Positions 1 through 34,222 of a stretch of 64,000 nucleotides of DNA are shown here, in pieces. Position 1 is the stretch's first letter. Every line of letters starts with the position of its first letter. The notes under the pieces are model-generated. The model was given only the letters and a program-made list of their open reading frames with translations. It made no database searches and was not told where the DNA came from. Position numbers and translations under genes: made by a program. Origin of the DNA: an uncultured bacterium (lineage in GTDB: Bacteria; Bacteroidota; Rhodothermia; Rhodothermales; DASSAV01); contig CBINFS010000015.1 of assembly GCA_966250015.1 (NCBI GenBank), positions 6,608-70,607 of the forward strand, written 5' to 3'.

Positions 1-220
1 GCGCGTAGGTATCCCAGGCGTCGGCTCCCACGAATCCGGTTACCGTCACCGTATGCCCGAGTCCTGCCAGCACCGTTGCCACGTTTACCGCCTTTCCGCC
101 GGGGTCGTCCTGCTCCCACTCAACGCGGTTCACTTCCCCCACCGTAAACCCCGGGATCGAAATTGAACGGTCGATAGACGGATTCAGGCAAACGGTGGCA
201 ATCGAGTTTCCGATATTCAT
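1..220 (-). CDS. 1-phosphofructokinase/tagatose-6-phosphate kinase family (PfkB) sugar kinase, N-terminal part; runs off left edge; absent from ORF track
   Basis: Manual translation from ATG at 220: MNIGNSIATVCLNPSIDRSISIPGFTVGEVNRVEWEQDDPGGKAVNVATVLAGLGHTVTVTGFVG. This has the FruK/LacC N-terminal LNPSID motif and PfkB signature GGKAVNVA. Confidence 0.88.
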   Translation of the reverse strand, partial: MNIGNSIATVCLNPSIDRSISIPGFTVGEVNRVEWEQDDPGGKAVNVATVLAGLGHTVTVTGFVGADAWDTYA

Positions 221-385
221 CGCGCAAGGACATTTAGATTCGGACCATCACCCCCTACCCAAAACTGGCGCCCGCACAGGTTTATGAACAAAATAACCTC
301 TCGACCTGTCCGAACGGAATAAAACAACGTATCATTCCGGAGCCAAATAAATACCGGCCACCTTCCAACAGACCTTTTTTTCGCC

Positions 386-1552
386 ATGCGTGGAAGAACG
401 CTCCAACACGTCTTCTTCTTCATTCTTCTCTTCATCATTACGGTTGCGTTTATCTGGCTCATCCGTGCCTTCATTGAACCTATCCTCTGGGCGGCCATCC
501 TGGCGATCATCTTCCGGCCCATTCAGAAAAGATGGTTGAGGGTATTTAAAAACCGGGTCTCTACGGCTTCACTTTTTTCCCTCATCACCATCATTTTTAT
601 CGTGATCATCCCCCTTTCATTGCTTGGCGTGGCCGTTTCAAATGAGGCGATTAACCTGTACGAAGGCATAACAGAAGGCAGGATAGACGTTCAAAAGCCC
701 ATCCAGATGATGCAACAGGCGGTGCCGGTTTTAAACGAGTTTCTCGAACGATTCGGCATAGAGACAGAGCGTATCCGGGAAAACCTTTCAAATATCGCCG
801 TCACTGCCAGCCAGTACCTTGCCTCTCAGACGGTGGCGATCGGCCAGAACACCCTCCGGATCACCGCCCTGTTCTTCATCATGCTGTACCTGCTTTTCTT
901 TTTCCTGCGTGACGGCGACCGACTGATCGATTCCTTCGTGAAGGTCCTGCCGCTTGGGGACGAACGTGAACGGAGGCTCTTCAGCAAGTTCGCGGAAGTT
1001 TCGCGAGCCACCATCAAAGGAACGCTGGTAGTAGGCGTTATTCAGGGCGCATTAGGTGGGTTCATATTTTGGGTTCTCGGCATCAGCGCGCCGATCTTCT
1101 GGGCCGTGTTGATGACCGTCCTCTCCCTCCTGCCCGCCATTGGAGCTGCCATTATCTGGTTCCCAGCCGCCGTCATTCTGATCGTGACGGGCAGCTACAT
1201 CAAAGGTTTGATCCTGCTCGCCTTCGGAACCGGCGTGATCAGTCTGGTCGACAACTTCCTTCGCCCTGTGCTGGTAGGCAGGGACACACGAATGCCCGAC
1301 TACCTCGTACTACTCTCCACCCTGGGCGGACTCGCAGTATTTGGCATATCGGGCTTCGTGATCGGACCCGTAATCGCAGCCCTGACTATCTCCTTCTGGC
1401 AGATGTTCGAAGAGGAATACGCCGTCAAAGAAGACGCCTATGCCATAAGTCCGCCGGTTGAGACTCCTCCGACAGATGAAGCCGACTACCCCCTCGATTT
1501 ATCAGAGCAGGAGCAACCGGCCGGTCAAGACGGCGACTACGAAGACGCCTGA
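386..1552 (+). CDS. AI-2E family (PerM/YhhT-like) membrane transporter
   Basis: 388 aa, multiple hydrophobic helices, family-typical LSLLPAIGAAIIWFPA and DNFLRP..G..G.V.GP motifs. Confidence 0.88.
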   Translation: MRGRTLQHVFFFILLFIITVAFIWLIRAFIEPILWAAILAIIFRPIQKRWLRVFKNRVSTASLFSLITIIFIVIIPLSLLGVAVSNEAINLYEGITEGRIDVQKPIQMMQQAVPVLNEFLERFGIETERIRENLSNIAVTASQYLASQTVAIGQNTLRITALFFIMLYLLFFFLRDGDRLIDSFVKVLPLGDERERRLFSKFAEVSRATIKGTLVVGVIQGALGGFIFWVLGISAPIFWAVLMTVLSLLPAIGAAIIWFPAAVILIVTGSYIKGLILLAFGTGVISLVDNFLRPVLVGRDTRMPDYLVLLSTLGGLAVFGISGFVIGPVIAALTISFWQMFEEEYAVKEDAYAISPPVETPPTDEADYPLDLSEQEQPAGQDGDYEDA

Positions 1553-1559
1553 GTCATCG

Positions 1560-2828
1560 TCAAGGCAAGGCTACCGGGGCGTTATCGAGCAGATACTGTT
1601 CGGCCTCAACCGACCACAGGCCGTTGTGTTTTGCGACGATGGCCGCAAGATCGGCATAGAATGGATTGTCCTTACCCAATTTCTCAAGGTCGTCGATGGC
1701 AAACAGCTCCAGCTCACGTTGCGTATAGATCAGCTTCTTACCTCCCGGAATCTTGGGCAGGTTCATCGTCACGTCTATGACGGCGTTTAGCCCTCCGACG
1801 TGCGTAACGAGGGCGGCGGGATCGATCCGTCCAGCCGACATCAGTTCGATGGCCTTACGCATGTCATCCGTGTTGCCACCGCTCGTCGCGACGACGTGCG
1901 TAAAGCCATAGTGGACGTTGTAGAAATTGATCTCCGCCGAGAAGTTGGGGTCTGTCGGCCCGGCAAAGAAGTTCATACAGCCGTCGCGGCCGAGGATTGC
2001 GTCGGCCATCTCAACGACCGATCTTACTGGAGCCATCACGAAAACGTCGTCAAACCCCTCACCTCCGGTTAACGACACCAGATATTCCGTCGGATTTTCG
2101 AGCTTCCCTGTATTCACGTATTCGACTCGGATACCGTCCTTGGCTGCCTTTTCCGGCGGGAAGAGCTTTTTTGCACGGGCAAGGCGGTCGTCGTCGATGT
2201 CGGTAACGACAAACAGACCCGGACGCCGGTCTCCGTGAAGAGCATAGTCGACGGCGCCCAGCCCCATCGGACCCGCGCCGCCAAAAATCGCCATGTTTCC
2301 ACCTTCCTTGATCCCCATTTCGTGCACGTACGTGCCGTGAGGCCGGTGGTAGCTTGCGTTGAACGCACCAACGATGCACGACATCGGCTCCGCGAGCGAA
2401 GCATAAAAGAACCCTTCACCCGTATACTCGAGGAGGCAGTCCATCTCCATCACTTCATTCGGGATGATGACGTGTGTAGCATCACCTCCGATGTATTGGT
2501 AGGAATAGCCGGGCGCATCCAGGCTCCCTTTGTAGTTCAACGCGGGCTGGATGGAAAAACGGCTGCCGGGACTGAACCGGTCCTTCCACTTGGCGCCGAC
2601 TTCCAGAATCCTCCCCGAGAACTCGTGCCCGATGATGACGGGATTCTCCGCCACGTTGTCCGGTACGCGCTTGTGATCCGGACCCTGTTTCGTCGCCTTA
2701 TGGGAAGACATACAGATGCTATCGGATATGACCTCAGCCAGGATCTCATCTTCCTTGAGCGGGGGAAGCTCGAACGTTTCCAGCCTGAGGTCATTTTTGC
2801 CATAAAGGCGAACTGCTCTCGTTTTCAT
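1560..2828 (-). CDS. MDR-family zinc-binding dehydrogenase, L-sorbose-1-phosphate reductase (SorE/YggP)-like
   Basis: MKTRAVRLYGKNDLRLETFELP, SDSICMSS, IGHE, SLAEPMSCIVGA, GGAGPMGLGA and NFYNVHY closely follow the SorE/YggP pattern. Confidence 0.85.
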   Translation of the reverse strand: MKTRAVRLYGKNDLRLETFELPPLKEDEILAEVISDSICMSSHKATKQGPDHKRVPDNVAENPVIIGHEFSGRILEVGAKWKDRFSPGSRFSIQPALNYKGSLDAPGYSYQYIGGDATHVIIPNEVMEMDCLLEYTGEGFFYASLAEPMSCIVGAFNASYHRPHGTYVHEMGIKEGGNMAIFGGAGPMGLGAVDYALHGDRRPGLFVVTDIDDDRLARAKKLFPPEKAAKDGIRVEYVNTGKLENPTEYLVSLTGGEGFDDVFVMAPVRSVVEMADAILGRDGCMNFFAGPTDPNFSAEINFYNVHYGFTHVVATSGGNTDDMRKAIELMSAGRIDPAALVTHVGGLNAVIDVTMNLPKIPGGKKLIYTQRELELFAIDDLEKLGKDNPFYADLAAIVAKHNGLWSVEAEQYLLDNAPVALP

Positions 2829-25814: not shown

Positions 25815-26306
25815 TCATTCCAGCGTTTTCGGAAGGACGAGCCACACCAGCGTCCCCGTCCCCTGATTCACCTCCCGCCAGGAGTCGACCTCCAGGTCGA
25901 TACGCGCCATTGCGGCAGTCGGGAAACGAACGGCGGTGCCTCCAGTGAGCAGCCGAATCGTCATGGACAGTGACGGCTCATGCCCGACAACGAGTACGTT
26001 TTCGACGGCGTCTTCTATCGAATGTAAAACATCCAGCACCCCACCGGGGCTCGCTTCGTAGAGCTCATCAGTCACCTGCACCGGTACGTCCCATTGCGTG
26101 GCCTCAAGGGCGACGTCGAGCGTTTCCCTCGCGCGCTGTGCAGACGAGGTGATGCACACGTCAGGCACGAATCCTGTGTCCTTCAAATACTTCCCCATCT
26201 TCCGTGAAGCCTTGACGCCTCGCTTTTTTAATGGCCGCTCGTGATCACTTTGCTCTTCCGTATCCCAATCCGACTTTCCGTGCCTGAAAAAGATGACGTT
26301 TTTCAT
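25815..26306 (-). CDS. sixA: Phosphohistidine phosphatase SixA family
   Basis: RHGKS, SSAQRARET and VVGHEPS. Confidence 0.88.
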   Translation of the reverse strand: MKNVIFFRHGKSDWDTEEQSDHERPLKKRGVKASRKMGKYLKDTGFVPDVCITSSAQRARETLDVALEATQWDVPVQVTDELYEASPGGVLDVLHSIEDAVENVLVVGHEPSLSMTIRLLTGGTAVRFPTAAMARIDLEVDSWREVNQGTGTLVWLVLPKTLE

Positions 26307-26342: not shown

Positions 26343-27095
26343 TTACGGAATTACGGAATTGGGAACCTGAACCACCGAACTATTGACCGTCATGATGAAA
26401 ACCGTGATGTACAGTATGACGCCGACCGTTAGTGCAATGGTAAAGGTGGTATATGAGTATCGTAAATATCGAAACTTGAAGGCCAGCACATGCCCGAGGT
26501 TGTATATGTCCACCATCATGTCTCGGTACAACCGGTCAGTGTCCTGAAGCAGTTCACTCATGCTGGTCAGGTATTCATCTTCGGAAAGCCCGACGAAATT
26601 ATTGAAAAACAAGATACTGGTATTGCGCCCTCTCTGCCCCGGCCTGGCTTCCAGTTTTCTACTGATTCGGGGCCGCGCAGCCTGAATCGCATTGACGATG
26701 GAAACAAGGCAACCGATGAGCAGCACCGACGTCGGAATGAGCAACCACGGATTGGCGTCGATCTTTGGTGAGATGGAGGCCAAAACGAACGATATGATGA
26801 TGCCGTTGATCGTGATCATGATGTTCGCCTTATTGTCGGCGAGCGCGCTCAGGTCGACGTGCTGCCGGTAAGAAGTGCGAAACATCGTCTCGATGCCTCT
26901 CTCCGATCCAATCCCCTTATCCTTCTTTTTCTTCTTCTTTTTGTCCTTTCTCTCCTTCTCAAGCTGAGTCGCCTCGACCTGTTCGAGCCTAACCGGATAA
27001 CTGCCAGGATCAGACACGGATAGAGGGGTCCCGACCTCTTTCTCACCATTGGGTGCGGTGAGCCTGGTTTGCAATTTGGTGCGCTTTTCTTCCAT
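26343..27095 (-). CDS. DUF5706 / Pycsar-effector-like (PycTM-type) membrane protein, stand-alone
   Basis: ERGIETMFR...HVDLSALADNKANIMITINGIII, TM helices, ILFF and LAFKFRYLRYSY, preceded by a Lys-rich segment. Confidence 0.8.
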   Translation of the reverse strand: MEEKRTKLQTRLTAPNGEKEVGTPLSVSDPGSYPVRLEQVEATQLEKERKDKKKKKKKDKGIGSERGIETMFRTSYRQHVDLSALADNKANIMITINGIIISFVLASISPKIDANPWLLIPTSVLLIGCLVSIVNAIQAARPRISRKLEARPGQRGRNTSILFFNNFVGLSEDEYLTSMSELLQDTDRLYRDMMVDIYNLGHVLAFKFRYLRYSYTTFTIALTVGVILYITVFIMTVNSSVVQVPNSVIP

Positions 27096-27163: not shown

Positions 27164-30100
27164 TCAGTAGAAAAAGCCCAGCCTGAGCGTAAACATTTGC
27201 TCCTCGTTTGAGAAATCCATCGTCCCGGTGAGTATGGCGCGGTTGAAAACACCCATCCATAGACCGCCTCCGTAACCCTGATGCCATACCCGCGAGCGCT
27301 CGTGGTCTGCCCACACACGGCCATTGTCCAGGAAACCGAGGATGCCGATCTCACCACCAAGCAGGTAGGTCGAAAAACCGAATAGCCGAGCCCTTAGCTC
27401 GACGTTCTGAAACACGCTGCTTCGTCCTGAAAACCGGGTGCTGCGATAACCGCGGAGGTTGTCCTTACCGCCGAGCGTGCTGGCCGCATAGTAAGGCATC
27501 GATCCCAACACGTGCTCGGCTCCTACACGAACCGCCAGCGTTATCGGTGACCGAACGCCTTGAGAGAAATAGACGACGAGCTCCGTTCCTGCCCTCGTAT
27601 AATCGTCTTTCGCGTGCCGGAGGCCGTAATGTACGCCAACTCTTGCCTCCCACTTGTAGCCGTACTTCGGGTTGACCTTGTTATCGACCGTATTGATTGA
27701 GAGGGCGGTCTCCGCACCGGCGTACCACTGATCCTGGAACACCTCGTCGCCGATCTCACTGATGGGCATACCGATAAAACGGCTCCCATCGCGGTGTGTC
27801 TTCGTGACTTCCAGTTTTGGACCGATGGCAAAACGAATTCCCTCGCCAATGTTGTGTTCGACGGTCGGCAGGAACGTAAACTGTGTTATGCGTGCTTCAT
27901 AAAACGACGATGATCCCTCACGCAGAGTCTCATTCCCCATCCCGTAGTAGTTGCGGAGCGCACGCGGGGCCAGCAGGTCCGCCGACAAATGGACGTCCCA
28001 CCCTCCGAGTACGGAGACGAAAAGGCCGTCGTACACCACGTTAAACGCCAGCGTCCGGGCTGCAAAGTTGGCGCGAAACCGTTGCAGGTTTGCATACGGA
28101 TCCTTGCGGAATCCGTGCTTCTTCCACTCGAAGCCGCCTCCGACGTACACACCATCGTCCCGGTTTGAACCGAAATACGTCAGCGGCACGACGAGGTCGT
28201 GCTTGTAAGCCCAGCTATCGTATTCGTTTACGAGCGGATTATGAGATAGACGGATGCGCGTTTCACCGTTGGACTCAGCCTTTGTGCTCGAGACCGTATC
28301 GTAAAACCGGCCTTTCTTTCCGACACCCTTGACCCGTGAGCGGTCCACAAATACGTCGTCACCCGGTCCGCCGACGGCGGTAATGAGGATACCTTCGTTA
28401 ACCTCACCCGATATTTCGAATTGATCGTTGCCGCCGAGCCCGTACAATCGCACTTCATCCGTCTCATCGTCGTAGAACGTGCGCCTGTACATTATGTCCG
28501 AAACCTGACCTTCCTTTGTGGTTTTGTAAACCACAACTTCAGTCTCGTCGTTGTTCTTCCGGATGACTTCGAAGCGTTCATGTTTGTCGCTGGTTACGAC
28601 GTCTACGACGCGTGCGTACAGATCGTAGTAGTCTTCAGCGAGTTCGGGCAGTTTGTCCCTCCTGACACGAAGCAAATGGCCGAACTCCGGTGCGTATAGC
28701 TTCCAAATTGAATCCGGCCAGGCCAACGACGCTTCGTCGATCACATCGTCCGTAAGAGCGGCCTTTACGCTATCCGCAATCTCGATCCAGTCTTGCCTTG
28801 TCAGCATTGAGGTAAATCGCCGGTCCTGCTCCATCCCGTTTTTGGTAAGACCCTTCAGACTTCCATAATCCGAATGGAAATCCTGGAACTTGGGCATGAC
28901 GTATTGGACGAGCGACGGAAACACGCCGTTCATCCGATTGAATGCCCAGTCTCTATCCCGCGGGATGGGCCGGTAGGTGTGCCCTTTACCGTTTGGATTT
29001 TCAAATTCGGCCCATCGGAACTGGTCCCGGTGACGATCCCAATCGCTGATGAGGAAGTCGAGCAGACGAGCTCTCGCAAACGCCCTTTGGTCAATCCGAT
29101 TATCGTTGTCCTTGTTGAGCTTCTCGTACAGCTTTTCGGAACCGATCACGTTCTTCGAGCGGCCGAAGCTGGGCATGTCGGACACGTCGCCGTCCGGGCG
29201 TTCTTCGAACATCATGATTTGCCCGGCGAACATTGCGCGGTAGATCCCGAGTCTGGGGTCATCGGGTACGAAGACGATCTTGGGATTGGTGTGATAGACC
29301 CCTGCGGCTTCGGCAAGTCTCGGGACGACGAACGCACCGAACGGATGTAACGACGAGATCTGATCCTGGATGATGTCGAGCGCAACCGTTTCACGAAGGT
29401 CCTCCGGAACCGTTTTCGTCGGGTCCTTATCAATCGACCGTAGAACGTACTCGTGGCCATCTGCCCCCAAGAGTTGCAACGAGAGGGTCTGCATACCGCC
29501 GCCGAGCTCTATCGGTGTCAGCCCTCCGGCCTCTTTGCTCATGTCGAGAACCGGAACGGTGACAGGAGTAGTCCACGCCTTACGGTGCTGGCTGCCCAGG
29601 AAGAAGGTTTTAAAACCTCCCGCCTCATAGCTCGGATTAACGGCCAACTGCCGCGTGGCGCCTTCGGGCACTGAGAACGTCTCACCGGCAATTTGATCAT
29701 CTGATCCTGTGGGTAATGGACCGGCTTCCCTGAGCGCCACCCGGTAAAGGGTATTCCCCTCTCTACTTTCAGGTACAGCCTCCTTCATATCAAGCCAGAT
29801 CGAGCCATCCCGATGATATTCGATGATGGCAATTCCGGTCGCAGACCTGGAGAATCCAGTCCGGCCCGCTTTCGCAACGTATTCGGGGTTTTCACCTGCA
29901 CCACTGATAATGTGATGCACCTTGCCATCAGGCAAGTGTTGCAGGCTCCGGTCGTGGCCCGACGCGTAGATCAGGTTTTCATGTTGGCGAAAGAGGGTCG
30001 AGAATCCGCGCCGTAGAATTTGGTAACGAGAGGCGGCAAGGTCCTGGTCATTACCAACGAACCGTCTGTAAAGCGGATAGGCCGACCCTATCAACGGCAG

Positions 30101-30874
30101 AGGGAGATACGCGTTTTCAAACCGGGCCGTCAGAGGGAACAGGTGATACCGAAGGGGAAAGTGGCCACCGTGAATGCCCTGTGACCGGATCGGATGGTGC
30201 CCCACCACGATCAGGTCTTTTTTTCGGTTTCGCTTGATCAGGTCGTCGAGCTGGACGAGGAAGTCGCCGTCCTGTTCTTGGCCCATGTCGACGTTTTCTT
30301 CGTCACCTTCATCCCGGAACCACTCCCTGGTATTCAATAGGATTAGTGTCAGCGATCCCGTCAGCTCGATCTCAATCGGCTCCATCGAATGATCCGTGGG
30401 AGCAACGATCTGTCCCACGGATGACGGAGTCGAAGCATCTGCGATCGCTTCCACTTCCGGTGCGTAGAAAGACCCATCGTGTTCTCCCGGCACGAGAATC
30501 ACTCTGCCCTGATACGAGCTGAATGCACGACGGGGAGCCTCTTGTTGAATCTCAGGAAGCCCGGCATACTGAACCTCCGTTTCATCCAGGAAACAACACG
30601 GCAGCCGATCGCCGAGAAAAACGACGCTGCTACGGCTGCCGGCCTCTTCGAGATGGTACGCTAACAGATCCGACATGGGCGAATCGTATTCGCCGTCAGG
30701 CCCGGCGTCGCCCACCAGAATGATCCGGTAATCGACGGTAGAGTCCGACCCTGCGTTGACCGCCGATCCAGATCCGACCCCCGCCTGCTGAACCGTACCA
30801 CACGCTGTGATCAGCAACAGCGCGACGATAGAGATGCCCCTGAGTATCCAATCAGTTCTCATCTTTTTCCTCAA
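27164..30874 (-). CDS. Omp85/BamA-TamA-family outer-membrane lipoprotein with N-terminal calcineurin-like metallophosphoesterase and central atypical-kinase-like domain
   Basis: Lipobox LLLITAC; phosphoesterase GDAG/GDR/GEHD/GHHP/GHD; central GGGMQT..YVLRS..DWDRHRDQ..PRDRD; C-terminal barrel with LRGYRSTRFSG and terminal GFFY. Confidence 0.85.
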   Translation of the reverse strand: MRKKMRTDWILRGISIVALLLITACGTVQQAGVGSGSAVNAGSDSTVDYRIILVGDAGPDGEYDSPMSDLLAYHLEEAGSRSSVVFLGDRLPCCFLDETEVQYAGLPEIQQEAPRRAFSSYQGRVILVPGEHDGSFYAPEVEAIADASTPSSVGQIVAPTDHSMEPIEIELTGSLTLILLNTREWFRDEGDEENVDMGQEQDGDFLVQLDDLIKRNRKKDLIVVGHHPIRSQGIHGGHFPLRYHLFPLTARFENAYLPLPLIGSAYPLYRRFVGNDQDLAASRYQILRRGFSTLFRQHENLIYASGHDRSLQHLPDGKVHHIISGAGENPEYVAKAGRTGFSRSATGIAIIEYHRDGSIWLDMKEAVPESREGNTLYRVALREAGPLPTGSDDQIAGETFSVPEGATRQLAVNPSYEAGGFKTFFLGSQHRKAWTTPVTVPVLDMSKEAGGLTPIELGGGMQTLSLQLLGADGHEYVLRSIDKDPTKTVPEDLRETVALDIIQDQISSLHPFGAFVVPRLAEAAGVYHTNPKIVFVPDDPRLGIYRAMFAGQIMMFEERPDGDVSDMPSFGRSKNVIGSEKLYEKLNKDNDNRIDQRAFARARLLDFLISDWDRHRDQFRWAEFENPNGKGHTYRPIPRDRDWAFNRMNGVFPSLVQYVMPKFQDFHSDYGSLKGLTKNGMEQDRRFTSMLTRQDWIEIADSVKAALTDDVIDEASLAWPDSIWKLYAPEFGHLLRVRRDKLPELAEDYYDLYARVVDVVTSDKHERFEVIRKNNDETEVVVYKTTKEGQVSDIMYRRTFYDDETDEVRLYGLGGNDQFEISGEVNEGILITAVGGPGDDVFVDRSRVKGVGKKGRFYDTVSSTKAESNGETRIRLSHNPLVNEYDSWAYKHDLVVPLTYFGSNRDDGVYVGGGFEWKKHGFRKDPYANLQRFRANFAARTLAFNVVYDGLFVSVLGGWDVHLSADLLAPRALRNYYGMGNETLREGSSSFYEARITQFTFLPTVEHNIGEGIRFAIGPKLEVTKTHRDGSRFIGMPISEIGDEVFQDQWYAGAETALSINTVDNKVNPKYGYKWEARVGVHYGLRHAKDDYTRAGTELVVYFSQGVRSPITLAVRVGAEHVLGSMPYYAASTLGGKDNLRGYRSTRFSGRSSVFQNVELRARLFGFSTYLLGGEIGILGFLDNGRVWADHERSRVWHQGYGGGLWMGVFNRAILTGTMDFSNEEQMFTLRLGFFY

Positions 30875-30934: not shown

Positions 30935-33517
30935 CTAATACCCCTGCGTCTCTCTGGCATAGTGGCGAAGAGAATCCCTCGCCAGCTCACGTATTACCTT
31001 AACGATGGTCTTAGCCGTAATGGGTGATCCTTCGTCGAGATAACGGCTATCCAGGCGGAAGAGCGTGCAACCTCGCACGACGCGCACACTGGCAACAGGG
31101 GAGGCATCGACAAATACGGAGGCCCCATTGAATACGTCACCAGTCCCGAAGCGCCGAACCGGTTGCTCCGGTCCCTCGACTACCAGCTCTCCTTCTCTTA
31201 CGACAAATAACGCCGACGAGGGTCGGTCTGAAGACACTACGACGTCTCCGGCTTCGTATCGGACCGTTTCCAGAAGTCGGCTGATCGTTTCCAGCTCGTC
31301 ACGGCTGAGGGATCGGAAAGGCTCGTGCTCGCCGAGGAACTGCGGGATGTCCGGCGATTGACGGTCGGAAGCAGCGGCGGCAGGCTCCCTTTCCTCCGTA
31401 TCTCGTTTAGACTGGAGATAAACGTTCTCCGTGGACCCTGATATCTCATCTGACTCCTTCTTCAGCAAGCTGTACGTATCAAGCTGCGCGCGCACCGGTG
31501 GGGCCTGATCGTCGCGGATGTACTGGTTGGTCTGCTCCTCGTCGATGATCCTGGCTTTGGTGTTGTCGGCAAGGTGAAGCTCGACGAGCTTGCGTATTTC
31601 TTGCTTCAGCCTGTCGTCAAGAATCGGAAAGGCTACCTCCACACGCTCGCTGAGGTTACGTCTCATCCAATCGGCAGAGGCCAGGTAGTATTCTTCTGCC
31701 CCATCGTTGTAGAAAATGAAAACTCGCGAGTGTTCGAGGAAGCGGTCGACGATGCTCCGGACGCGTATGTTTTCGCTCTGCCCCTTAACACCAGGAACGA
31801 GTCTGCAAATACCCCGAACGACCAGATCGACGCGTACACCGGCGTTGGAGGCCTCGTACAGGCGTGTGATGATTTTCGTGTCTTCGAGGCTGTTCATTTT
31901 CAAAATGATTCGCGCCTCACGACCCGACTGTGCGTGCTCGATCTCCCGATCGATCAACCGGTAAAGTGACTTTCTCAGATAGAACGGTGCTACGAGCACC
32001 CGCTCGAACGAAGGTTTTTCGATCTCGCCGGATAGAAATCCGAAAACCTTCCGGATGTCCCGCGTTATTGTTTGGTCTGCCGTAAATAACCCTTCATCCG
32101 TGTAGATTCGGGCGGTTTTTTCGTTGAAGTTCCCGGTCGAGAGGTAGGCCAGCATGGGCGGGTCGGCCCCTGGAGAGCGAACGACGAGTGCGAGCTTGGC
32201 ATGGACCTTCAGGCCCGGCATGCTGTACAGAATGCGGATGCCGGCCTGCTCCATCTGTTCTGCCCAGAACAGGTTCGGCTCCTCGTCGAAACGCGCCTTG
32301 ATCTCGACGAACGCCGTCACCCGTTTCCCCTTCCTCGCAGCCTCGATCAGGGCGCTCACTACTTTAGATTGAGAAGCCACCCTGTATAGTGCAATCCAGA
32401 TCTCTTCGACCTCGGGGTCGTCGGTTGCTTCGTGGAGAAAATCGACCACGTAGTCGAAGCTCTGGTATGGCAAATGTAAAAGCAGGTCTTGCTCCTTGAT
32501 GGCCGAAAACAGGGAGGGATAGCCACTGATCACCGGGTGGCCAAGGGGCGGCAACGGAGCATAACACAGGTCCTTGAATCCGAATCGCGGAAATGAATGC
32601 AGATCGTGGAGGTTGTGATATCTTCCCCCGGGAACGAGGTCGTCCTCGTCAAACCTCATCCTCGAGGTGAGGACGGAAACCATTTCCACCGGCATGTTCA
32701 GATCGTACAGGACACGGCACGGGATTCCACTCGCTCGTTTTGCCAGCCCCTTGGCGATCTTTTCCTTTAAGTTGCCCGTGTACTCGTCGTCGAGATTCAG
32801 GTCTGCATCTCGCGAAAGCTTGACGGCATAGGCCTGCCCTATCTCGTACTCGGGGAAGATCTGCGGCAGATTGAACCGCACGATGTCGTCGAGGAACATC
32901 ACGTATTGATGTTCCCCGGTGCCCGGAATCCAGACGAACCGGGGCAGAACCGTTCTGGGGACCTCGACGACGCCATAGCTCAGACCACGCCGGTCCTCGC
33001 TTCCATTCACCGGCCACGCCCTGAGAGCAGTCAAGAGAAAGAGGCACTTATCCGGCAGAAACGGGACGTCGCGTTCATCATCCAGAAAATAAGGGCGAAC
33101 GTGCGGCCTGACCTGCTCATCGAAGTATTTCCGGACGAACTCAGCCTGCTCTTCCTTTACGTCCTGGTCGTTGATCAGCCGGATGCCCAGCGCCTCCAGC
33201 TCCGGGAGAATCTCCTCCCTGAATATCCGCCCAAACTCTTCCTGCTGCCCGGTAACGACCCGGTATATCTGCTTGAGCAGCTTCGAGGGATTAAAGTCCA
33301 GATTGTCGATGGACTTCTTTTTTAGTCGAAGCAGGCTTCGCAGAGAGGCTACCCTGACCCTGAAAAACTCGTCCAGGTTGGAGGAGAAAATCGCAAGGAA
33401 GGAGAGGCGTTCGAACAACGGGACCGTCGGGTCCTTTGCCTCTTGCAGTACACGTCCGTTAAAGCTTAGCCAGCTTAATTCCCGGTCGAAATAGATGTAT
33501 TTATCACGTTTAGCCAT
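30935..33517 (-). CDS. ppk1: Polyphosphate kinase 1 with C-terminal cyclic-nucleotide-binding-fold extension
   Basis: DRELSWLSFNGRVLQEA, NLDEFFRVRVA, EIKARFDE, KVHAKL, STGNFN, RFLEHSR and SADWMRRN, plus about 170 extra C-terminal residues with a CNBD pattern. Confidence 0.95.
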   Translation of the reverse strand: MAKRDKYIYFDRELSWLSFNGRVLQEAKDPTVPLFERLSFLAIFSSNLDEFFRVRVASLRSLLRLKKKSIDNLDFNPSKLLKQIYRVVTGQQEEFGRIFREEILPELEALGIRLINDQDVKEEQAEFVRKYFDEQVRPHVRPYFLDDERDVPFLPDKCLFLLTALRAWPVNGSEDRRGLSYGVVEVPRTVLPRFVWIPGTGEHQYVMFLDDIVRFNLPQIFPEYEIGQAYAVKLSRDADLNLDDEYTGNLKEKIAKGLAKRASGIPCRVLYDLNMPVEMVSVLTSRMRFDEDDLVPGGRYHNLHDLHSFPRFGFKDLCYAPLPPLGHPVISGYPSLFSAIKEQDLLLHLPYQSFDYVVDFLHEATDDPEVEEIWIALYRVASQSKVVSALIEAARKGKRVTAFVEIKARFDEEPNLFWAEQMEQAGIRILYSMPGLKVHAKLALVVRSPGADPPMLAYLSTGNFNEKTARIYTDEGLFTADQTITRDIRKVFGFLSGEIEKPSFERVLVAPFYLRKSLYRLIDREIEHAQSGREARIILKMNSLEDTKIITRLYEASNAGVRVDLVVRGICRLVPGVKGQSENIRVRSIVDRFLEHSRVFIFYNDGAEEYYLASADWMRRNLSERVEVAFPILDDRLKQEIRKLVELHLADNTKARIIDEEQTNQYIRDDQAPPVRAQLDTYSLLKKESDEISGSTENVYLQSKRDTEEREPAAAASDRQSPDIPQFLGEHEPFRSLSRDELETISRLLETVRYEAGDVVVSSDRPSSALFVVREGELVVEGPEQPVRRFGTGDVFNGASVFVDASPVASVRVVRGCTLFRLDSRYLDEGSPITAKTIVKVIRELARDSLRHYARETQGY

Positions 33518-33832: not shown

Positions 33833-34222
33833 TCACCTCAAAGCTTGCCTTGATGGCTCCAGTTTTCTTTCGATCTCTACTACCTTGGCCAGAAGCAAAT
33901 CATTTGAGAAGGGCTTCAGAATGTACGCGTCGGCGCCCGCTTCAACAGCTTCCAGCACGTCCTCCGCCTCTTTCCGCGTGGCCATGATCATGATACCGTG
34001 ACGGTGCATCTCACGTTTGCGGACGCGTCGGATCAGCTCGATACCACTCAACCCGGGAAGCTTCCACTCGGCAATCAACAAGTCGACCCGATGCTTCTGA
34101 AGGTAATCCCAGGCCTCCTCACCCGTGGAGGCTGCCTGCACGTCGGTATAACCGGCTTCCAAAAGTGTTCTCACGACGCCCCTCAGGCTGGTGCCGTTGG
34201 CATCGACTACCAATATCCTCAT
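33833..34222 (-). CDS. Single-domain response regulator (CheY-like), atypical (Asp to Glu)
   Basis: MRILVVDA..., DLLIAEWKLPGLSGIEL and GADAYILKPF. Confidence 0.88.
   Translation of the reverse strand: MRILVVDANGTSLRGVVRTLLEAGYTDVQAASTGEEAWDYLQKHRVDLLIAEWKLPGLSGIELIRRVRKREMHRHGIMIMATRKEAEDVLEAVEAGADAYILKPFSNDLLLAKVVEIERKLEPSRQALR

Follow-up and report, generated by a model that had tools for sequence, protein, structure and literature searches.

Because they depend on ATP, enzymes of the protein kinase fold are regarded as cytoplasmic or as directed at a host. In Bacillus subtilis CotH, the catalytic residue D228 is followed 23 residues later by the metal-binding D251 (PMC7821199). SEAE1 was presented as an uncatalogued, PIK-like family of protein-kinase-like (PKL) proteins from Bacteroidota, with lipid kinases as its closest folds, a D-x-x-x-x-N loop and a D-x-D motif, in a preprint that makes no mention of Omp85, phosphoesterase or polyphosphate (bioRxiv 10.64898/2026.09.18.752743). 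The fusion of a phosphoesterase to an Omp85 barrel was described as the 'Metallo' subtype of Omp85 (Heinz and Lithgow 2014, PMC4104836); the same paper calls the PF00149 domain a 'metalloprotease', makes no mention of a domain in the middle of the protein and does not contain the word 'kinase'. In PlpD, the prototype of 'type Vd', the patatin enzyme domain was shown to remain periplasmic (PMC11116518). Here we analyse a lipoprotein of the Metallo kind, encoded in a 64,000-nucleotide stretch of DNA from an uncultured bacterium of the Rhodothermales (assembly GCA_966250015.1, contig CBINFS010000015.1, positions 6,608 to 70,607), hereafter the window. An earlier note on this DNA had taken the fusion for a known Omp85 subtype, which the 2014 description bears out, and had suggested that a kinase-like domain is hidden between phosphoesterase and barrel.

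We conclude that amino acids (aa) ~405-755 of this protein probably form a genuine, uncatalogued PKL domain, which would reside in the periplasm, is likely an active phosphotransferase and would belong to a polyphosphate-linked envelope pathway.

Results

Four motifs had been read in the earlier note as signs of a kinase, namely a Gly-rich loop, a beta3-like strand, a catalytic-loop-like stretch and a downstream PRDRDWAF. Exact translation confirms each of them, and all four lie between the metallophosphoesterase and the Omp85 barrel in one gene (Table 1; residue numbers throughout follow the 1236-aa numbering from the TTG start). The pattern D.DRH..[QN], followed after 15-35 aa by D.D, has a single match in the 43,786 residues of the window's six-frame open reading frames of 100 aa or more. 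AlphaFold2 (AF2), supplied with aa 400-800 aligned with 56 full-length homologues (alignment A1), returned a model with a mean predicted local distance difference test score (pLDDT) of 91.3, a predicted template modelling score (pTM) of 0.90 and no low-confidence segment. The predicted structure is bilobal and of the kinase type, with an N-lobe sheet that includes one helix and a helical C-lobe. In the N-lobe, strand 452-458 leads through the Gly-rich loop GGGMQT into strand 465-470, so that the loop lies between beta1 and beta2, and is followed by strand 475-480, which carries R479, and by helix 497-507, which carries D504. Next come a hinge-like strand (552-558) and helix 596-608, and the series closes with the DWDRH loop, a hairpin (619-625 / 632-638) and D640-R-D642. 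The order of these predicted elements matches the PKL plan: a catalytic-loop Asp is followed by Gln618 in the place of Asn (D613-R-H-x-x-Q618), and metal-type Asp residues come after the hairpin, D640 and D642 being 27 and 29 residues past D613.

The structural comparison that the earlier note had called for, Foldseek with the predicted model, returned PKL folds at the top, CotH, HipA-type kinases and type II phosphatidylinositol 4-kinases (PI4-kinases) among them. The best match in the PDB is Bacillus cereus CotH (5jda, E 4.6e-5), followed by Helicobacter pylori CtkA (3akk, E 1e-4) and human PI4KIIalpha (4hne, E 2.3e-4), with YihE, COQ8A/ADCK3, PI4KIIbeta, PI3Kalpha, Rio2, Fam20 and HipT as subsequent matches. 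In the viral library BFVD the best match is a phage PI3/4-kinase-like protein (E 1.7e-8, template modelling (TM) score 0.41-0.44), and every leading match in the two libraries has a protein-kinase-like fold. We regard the fold of the domain, as predicted, as firm.

The residues that define the fold are also those that the family keeps. A set of 68 full-length proteins from Rhodothermales, Cytophagales, Sphingobacteriales, Bacteroidales and Balneolales was compared, 66 of them from loci in named genomes and the other two being the window protein and its paralogue. The following positions are identical in all 68: G458, G459, Q462, R479, K483, R603, D606, D611, W612, D613, R614, H615, Q618, W621, D640, R641 and D642; position 504 is always D or E. 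The PKL residues are at least 97% conserved in two wider sets, 109 close full-length homologues and 258 cluster representatives with identities of 42% and above, where Gln618 is replaced by Asn in a few relatives. Loss of DWDRH among homologues would have spoken against a kinase, and the motif is kept in essentially all of them. R431 joins R479, R603, R614 and R641 in a set of invariant arginines. The remark that beta3 has Arg where Lys is usual holds, R479 being invariant, and can be extended, since K483, which lies four residues on and after the strand, is invariant as well. By their positions in the sequence, both R479 and K483 are candidates for the phosphate-binding basic residue in the role of the beta3 lysine, with D/E504 in the next helix as the candidate partner of that residue.

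Could the motifs be a chance resemblance within a non-kinase linker domain? Searches with sequence alone give no significant kinase match, as such a view would predict, but the confident model, the retrieval of kinase folds only from two libraries, and the position of the motifs on the expected elements, where they are invariant in 68 of 68 proteins, led us to reject this view as extremely improbable.

The domain belongs to no catalogued family. Amino acids 405-775 match nothing in Pfam or NCBIfam even at E<=10, whether searched within the whole protein or as an isolated domain, and phmmer against PDB sequences found nothing significant. The CotH family PF08757 gave no match at E<=10 for the domain or for 28 relatives, no significant sequence similarity to HipA_C/CtkA emerged from a profile search of the PDB, and the PI3/PI4-kinase family PF00454 was not matched in Pfam scans, the likeness to it being one of fold only. 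The domain is thus a separate, uncatalogued PKL family and not a member of the CotH, HipA or PI3/4K families; judged by its motifs, it unites the W-D of the CotH type with the D-R-H-x-x-(N/Q) known from HipA and PI-kinases.

This family is large. It comprises 2619 cluster representatives at 50% identity (E<=1e-3), 1317 of them below 1e-30, and at least 599 loci among species-representative genomes. Named hosts include Rhodothermales, Rubricoccaceae, Pontibacter, Hymenobacter, Adhaeribacter, Pedobacter, Ancylomarina, Labilibaculum and Gracilimonas/Balneolaceae, as well as Gemmatimonadota and Ignavibacteria. Its thousands of sequences are spread over Bacteroidota, Rhodothermota, Balneolota, Gemmatimonadota and Ignavibacteria, and it is found in several phyla of the FCB group. 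In an even sample of 121 genomes from the window's phylum, 50 (about 40%) carry one to four copies; the window's own genome has two. Most homologues carry both PF00149 and PF01103, and the invariant core of the family is the PKL domain together with a 16-strand barrel that has no POTRA.

The phosphoesterase has a different history. In the window protein, Pfam recognises PF00149 (Metallophos) weakly, at aa 50-240 with 22.5 bits against a cut-off of 21.5, and in the full-length AF2 model the phosphoesterase region contains several stretches below pLDDT 50. Of 67 full-length relatives, 49 retain the complete ligand string D-D-Y-N-H-H-H of the family consensus (GDxG, GDxxY, GNHD, HH and GHxH). The window copy lacks three of the seven ligands of an active purple-acid-type metallophosphoesterase: D56, D89, H226/227 and H307 are kept, whereas Y92 has become P, N131 E and H309 R. 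Four related loci of Rhodothermales type (L002, L004, L024 and L072) are degenerate in the same way, and L024, L072 and L004 also have SixA downstream. Independent decay has occurred in several lineages (ligand strings DNSDK..N, NDTDR..R and GDSEA..P) next to an invariant kinase-like domain, and 38 of 264 collected proteins (about 15%) are forms of ~860 aa that begin directly at the kinase-like domain and have no phosphoesterase. The best Foldseek match of the phosphoesterase is Plasmodium GAP50 (3tgh, E 9.7e-10). GAP50 is an inactive protein resembling purple acid phosphatases. The phosphoesterase of the window copy is probably inactive, to judge from its residues, and on this comparison it is clearly the kinase-like domain, and not the phosphoesterase, that selection protects. 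The idea that one polypeptide carries a writer (kinase) and an eraser (phosphatase) therefore fails for the window copy, because three of the seven metal ligands of its phosphoesterase are gone; it may hold for many relatives, as their intact ligand strings suggest. Since the catalytic-type positions of the PKL domain are invariant while the adjoining phosphoesterase decays or is lost, we infer that this domain is in all likelihood an active phosphotransferase rather than a relic.

The remaining parts of the protein suggest where this chemistry would take place. A full-length AF2 model (aa 37-1236, pLDDT 83, pTM 0.77) has the phosphoesterase, the kinase-like domain, an all-beta linker and sixteen long strands in this order. 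The Omp85 family PF01103 matches aa 988-1195 (E 1.4e-8), the NCBIfam model NF047779 matches the Omp85 end only, and Foldseek relates the barrel to TamA (4c00, E 4.9e-11; barrel-only TamA 4n74, target TM 0.75) and also to BamA. The linker contains no beta-alpha-alpha-beta-beta unit in the model (aa 756-877), no POTRA family was matched in Pfam, and neither Pfam nor the model places a patatin passenger in the protein. The description of the barrel as type Vd-like in the earlier note is not supported: it is a 16-strand barrel like those of TamA and BamA, and it comes with neither POTRA nor patatin. Two conserved GGxGxD motifs in the linker (LYGLGGNDQF and AVGGPGDDVF) are reminiscent of calcium-binding beta-roll repeats.

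In Bacteroidota, an acidic stretch after the lipidated Cys marks surface-exported lipoproteins, and the N-terminal domains of Omp85 proteins are periplasmic. The window protein has a lipobox (LLITA/C at aa 20-25, a pattern match from which lipidation is predicted), and the five residues after the Cys hold no D or E in 108 of the 118 relatives with a lipobox (118 of 241 by a crude regular expression). We consider it most likely, from this lipobox without a surface-export signal and from the precedent of PlpD, that the enzyme domains stay in the periplasm instead of being exported. Fastened to the outer membrane through a lipid anchor at its N-terminus and the barrel at its C-terminus, the protein would keep its enzyme domains beneath the membrane and hold the kinase-like domain against the inner, periplasmic face. 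The exported kinase of the earlier note is not supported on the same evidence, as the lipobox has no acidic export signal and PlpD itself retains its enzyme domain in the periplasm (PMC11116518). In full, that model combined a surface-exposed, exported kinase with an active phosphatase on a type Vd-like barrel, supplied with polyphosphate or with ATP regenerated from it. Its kinase-like fold is real, canonical ligands are found in 49 of 67 relatives, and ppk1 adjoins the gene here and in 23 of 80 loci; but with three of seven ligands missing from the window phosphoesterase, and no POTRA, no patatin-type passenger, no surface-export signal and a periplasmic enzyme domain in PlpD, the model as a whole has become highly improbable.

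The kinase-Omp85 gene stands in a run of co-oriented genes that begins with a response-regulator gene, followed by ppk1, and ends with a SixA-like histidine phosphatase gene; along the run after ppk1 the gaps are about 60-72, 68 and 36 bp. Its own open reading frame (27164..30874, minus strand) is open from a TTG at 30874, which gives 1236 aa, but a 99%-identical record (P0002) of 1232 aa points to the ATG at 30862 as the likely start. Neighbours were counted within 10 kb of 80 loci from other genomes. A PycTM-type gene is near 59 of these loci and is fused to an HD domain in 52, a propeller lipoprotein is near 25 and SixA near 20. Linkage to ppk1 occurs in at least four gene orders (Hymenobacteraceae, Cyclobacteriaceae/Ekhidna, Marinifilaceae and Gemmatimonadota), and in the last of these ppk1 lies directly beside a phosphoesterase-less form, in divergent orientation. 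Among the 121 genomes, the kinase-Omp85 gene and PF18967 occur together in 43, alone in 7 and 6, respectively, and 65 have neither. As a control, CotH showed no association with the kinase-Omp85 gene in the same genomes (p 0.43). The tightest genomic partner is firmly the PycTM-type inner-membrane protein, because of the linkage at 59 of 80 loci and the co-occurrence in 43 of 121 genomes, and ppk1 is a frequent third party. A connection to polyphosphate may fairly be drawn from the linkage to ppk1 in several arrangements.

PycTM is best known as a family of cyclic-nucleotide-triggered effectors. A phage-defence context of the Pycsar type was considered and set aside, as 43 of 121 genomes have inherited PycTM together with an envelope gene of housekeeping appearance, which it usually adjoins. 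The PycTM protein of the window is missing the HD domain of most relatives and has instead, at its N-terminus, a tail that contains a run of lysines (KDKKKKKKKDK), while the window's ppk1, two genes upstream of the PycTM-family gene, has an extra C-terminal cyclic-nucleotide-binding domain (PF00027, aa 752-827). Receiver-like matches were found in only 5 of the 80 related loci. A scan of the operon for promoters and terminators gave counts near shuffled expectation and was uninformative, the method taking no account of the kind of promoter used in this lineage.

Table 1. Features of the kinase-Omp85 gene, its neighbours and the paralogous module (window positions, except for the last three rows, which refer to contig C75 of the same genome, locus L095, 208-6358).
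Feature	Residues (aa)	Position	Strand	Basis or remark
Lipoprotein gene, 1232 aa		27164..30862	-	Phosphoesterase, kinase-like domain, beta linker and Omp85 barrel
Signal peptide with lipobox, MRTDWILRGISIVALLLITA/C		30800..30862	-	Pattern; no acidic residue after Cys
Metallophosphoesterase, purple-acid-phosphatase type, degenerate		29720..30736	-	Pfam, ligand alignment, Foldseek
PKL domain	405-755	28610..29662	-	AF2 and Foldseek; no Pfam/NCBIfam match
Gly-rich loop GGGMQT	458-463	29486-29503	-	Between predicted beta1 and beta2; exact translation
Beta3 strand YVLRS	476-480	29435-29449	-	Exact translation
YVLRS plus IDK	476-483	29426..29449	-	Carries R479 and K483
D504, alphaC position	504	29363..29365	-	Helix after beta3; conserved as D or E
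Catalytic-loop-like DFLISDWDRHRDQ	606-618	29021-29059	-	Directly after helix 596-608, before beta hairpin
PRDRDWAF	638-645	28940-28963	-	Hairpin end; D640 and D642 at DFG-Asp position
All-beta linker domain	756-877	28244..28609	-	AF2; takes the place of a POTRA domain
Omp85 (TamA/BamA-like) beta-barrel, 16 strands	894-1236	27167..28195	-	AF2, Pfam, Foldseek
Response-regulator receiver gene, stand-alone		33833-34222	-	Just upstream of ppk1, co-oriented
ppk1, polyphosphate kinase 1		30935..33517	-	Upstream neighbour, co-oriented
PycTM-family (PF18967) membrane protein		26343..27095	-	Without HD domain; downstream of kinase-Omp85 gene
SixA-like histidine phosphatase (His_Phos_1)		25815..26306	-	Last gene of run
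HD-PycTM		208-1389	-	Contig C75
Propeller-type lipoprotein		1474-2436	+	Contig C75
Phosphoesterase-kinase-Omp85 paralogue, 1260 aa		2576-6358	+	Contig C75; canonical purple-acid-type ligands

Discussion

Several observations weigh against the view that the domain is an active periplasmic phosphotransferase of the PKL superfamily. The similarity of fold to PDB structures is remote (TM 0.29-0.37 on the query, root-mean-square deviation 9-13 A, identity 10-13%), the residue equivalences rest on the order of secondary-structure elements and on motif alignment, not on coordinate superposition, and canonical residues are swapped, namely the beta3 Lys for Arg, the Mg-binding Asn for Gln and the alphaC Glu for Asp. 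Pfam returned zero matches for 29 diverse domain sequences. A profile of these 29 sequences (A2), compared with all PDB sequences, picked up CtkA as the sole kinase, at a non-significant E of 0.49; the aligned stretch is the catalytic loop, with D-R-H-x-x-(N/Q) in register ('llDlligDwDRhddqwrW' vs 'vaDtLLGNFDRHNGNWGF'). Comparison by hhalign with 12 CotH domains, taken from genomes of the same phylum, gave a probability of 19% and a single-comparison P of 2.5e-4, with a CotH alignment that is shallow and has flanks with stops, which makes the comparison a weak test in both directions; it pairs DWD with the NWD of CotH and PRDRD with its PWDxD. At the level of motifs both alignments fit the predicted fold, although neither reaches statistical significance. 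As for the neighbourhood, ppk1 is near 23 of the 80 loci, i.e., only 29%, and the Fisher p of 7e-19 for co-occurrence with PF18967 in the 121 genomes is not corrected for shared ancestry. Finally, ATP is not known to occur in the periplasm, and a conventional kinase reaction would lack an obvious donor there.

The swapped residues and the lack of periplasmic ATP would suit a pseudokinase or ligand sensor, in which the fold binds a phosphorylated ligand (a nucleotide, the end of a polyphosphate chain or a lipid head group) without catalysis and acts as a periplasmic receptor or plug that couples the barrel to its PycTM partner. Pseudokinase scaffolds are common in the superfamily, and the tight co-inheritance with a membrane protein of an effector family points the same way. 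We nevertheless consider this unlikely, since D611/D613, D640/D642, R614, H615 and Q618 are invariant over several phyla, beyond what ligand binding usually demands, and the catalytic Asp is normally lost in relatives that only bind.

With an active phosphotransferase as the preferred reading, the neighbouring genes would place it in an envelope-spanning pathway that touches polyphosphate, as suggested by the co-inheritance with PycTM and the linkage to ppk1 and SixA-like genes. The invariant arginines (R431, R479, R603, R614 and R641) would suit a polyanion. It is conceivable, though quite unlikely, that the periplasmic phosphotransferase uses polyphosphate and not ATP: PPK1 would make the polymer, the PycTM-type protein, a three-helix membrane protein, would pass or present it across the inner membrane, and the Omp85-anchored enzyme would spend it on an envelope lipid, lipopolysaccharide or a protein, with the phosphoesterase, in copies where it is canonical, trimming or reversing the reaction. 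A lipid acceptor is plausible by analogy, given the resemblance to type II PI4-kinases and the membrane-apposed tethering of the domain. The unusual active site with its many invariant arginines and the linkage to polyphosphate synthesis are also what one might expect of an active enzyme with other chemistry, such as the AMPylation or nucleotidyl transfer known from SelO, the ligation known from SidJ, or the hydrolysis or processing of polyphosphate, all the more as the superfamily hosts such reactions. However, the Foldseek matches include no specific likeness to SelO or SidJ and the nearest folds are true phosphotransferases, which makes this alternative distinctly unlikely.

If the domain is active, either the periplasm receives a phosphoryl donor as yet unknown or the fold has a different role in that compartment, and both would be new biology. 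What makes the case unusual is that a kinase-fold domain with frozen catalytic-type residues appears to be tied to a barrel of the outer membrane and to face a compartment in which ATP is not known to occur; the gene neighbourhood suggests polyphosphate as a candidate donor. Should the polyphosphate pathway sketched above prove true, it would be the first example of a kinase system in the bacterial envelope that works independently of ATP. Our literature searches found no paper that describes a kinase-fold domain in any Omp85 protein; they also found none on a CotH-VTC-DUF4956 cassette, and a paper on OMP76 of R. anatipestifer proved unrelated. What is new here is a PKL family in an architecture and a compartment so far undescribed for the kinase-like superfamily.

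How does the domain compare with its nearest described relatives? CotH (PF08757, 5jda) is the best fold match in the PDB and shares with it the (N/D)-W-D core and the downstream P-x-D-x-D strand; it also works outside the normal cytoplasm, and the spacing of its two aspartates is similar (23 residues vs 27 between D613 and D640 here). Only the window domain has a DRH after the W-D, an Arg in beta3 and a fusion to an Omp85 barrel. PF08757 has no match anywhere in the window's genome. True CotH-family proteins are present in 38 of the 121 genomes of the phylum, with up to 14 copies, and many of them are 780-1200 aa long.

The HipA-type kinases CtkA (3akj/3akk) and HipT share the fold, and their target-normalised TM of 0.49 is the highest of the top matches. 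Unlike the window domain, HipA kinases act in the cytoplasm as toxins or effectors, carry a beta3 Lys and a loop Asn, and lack a membrane barrel. Type II PI4-kinases and phage PI3/4K-like proteins account for many of the top PDB matches (TM 0.33-0.37) and for the best BFVD match; these enzymes are lipid-anchored and membrane-apposed, as the window domain would be. These kinases are, however, eukaryotic or viral, act on the cytosolic face and use ATP, and their PF00454 is absent from the window domain. SEAE1 is set apart by its description as well, being non-secreted and having its beta3 Lys (K140) 76 residues before the catalytic Asp, as against 130-134 here.

Among Omp85 proteins, the Metallo subtype is characterised by an N-terminal PF00149 domain and a POTRA-less barrel, and the window protein has both. 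We suggest that this subfamily be redescribed, because the part that it conserves, its business end, is the unannotated middle domain and not the phosphoesterase that gave it its name. PlpD likewise carries an enzyme domain N-terminal to its Omp85 barrel, but it has a POTRA and a patatin lipase, and is without an N-terminal lipid anchor. Our findings lend further support to an idea recently prompted by PlpD, that Omp85 barrels have been put to new use in anchoring enzymes in the periplasm.

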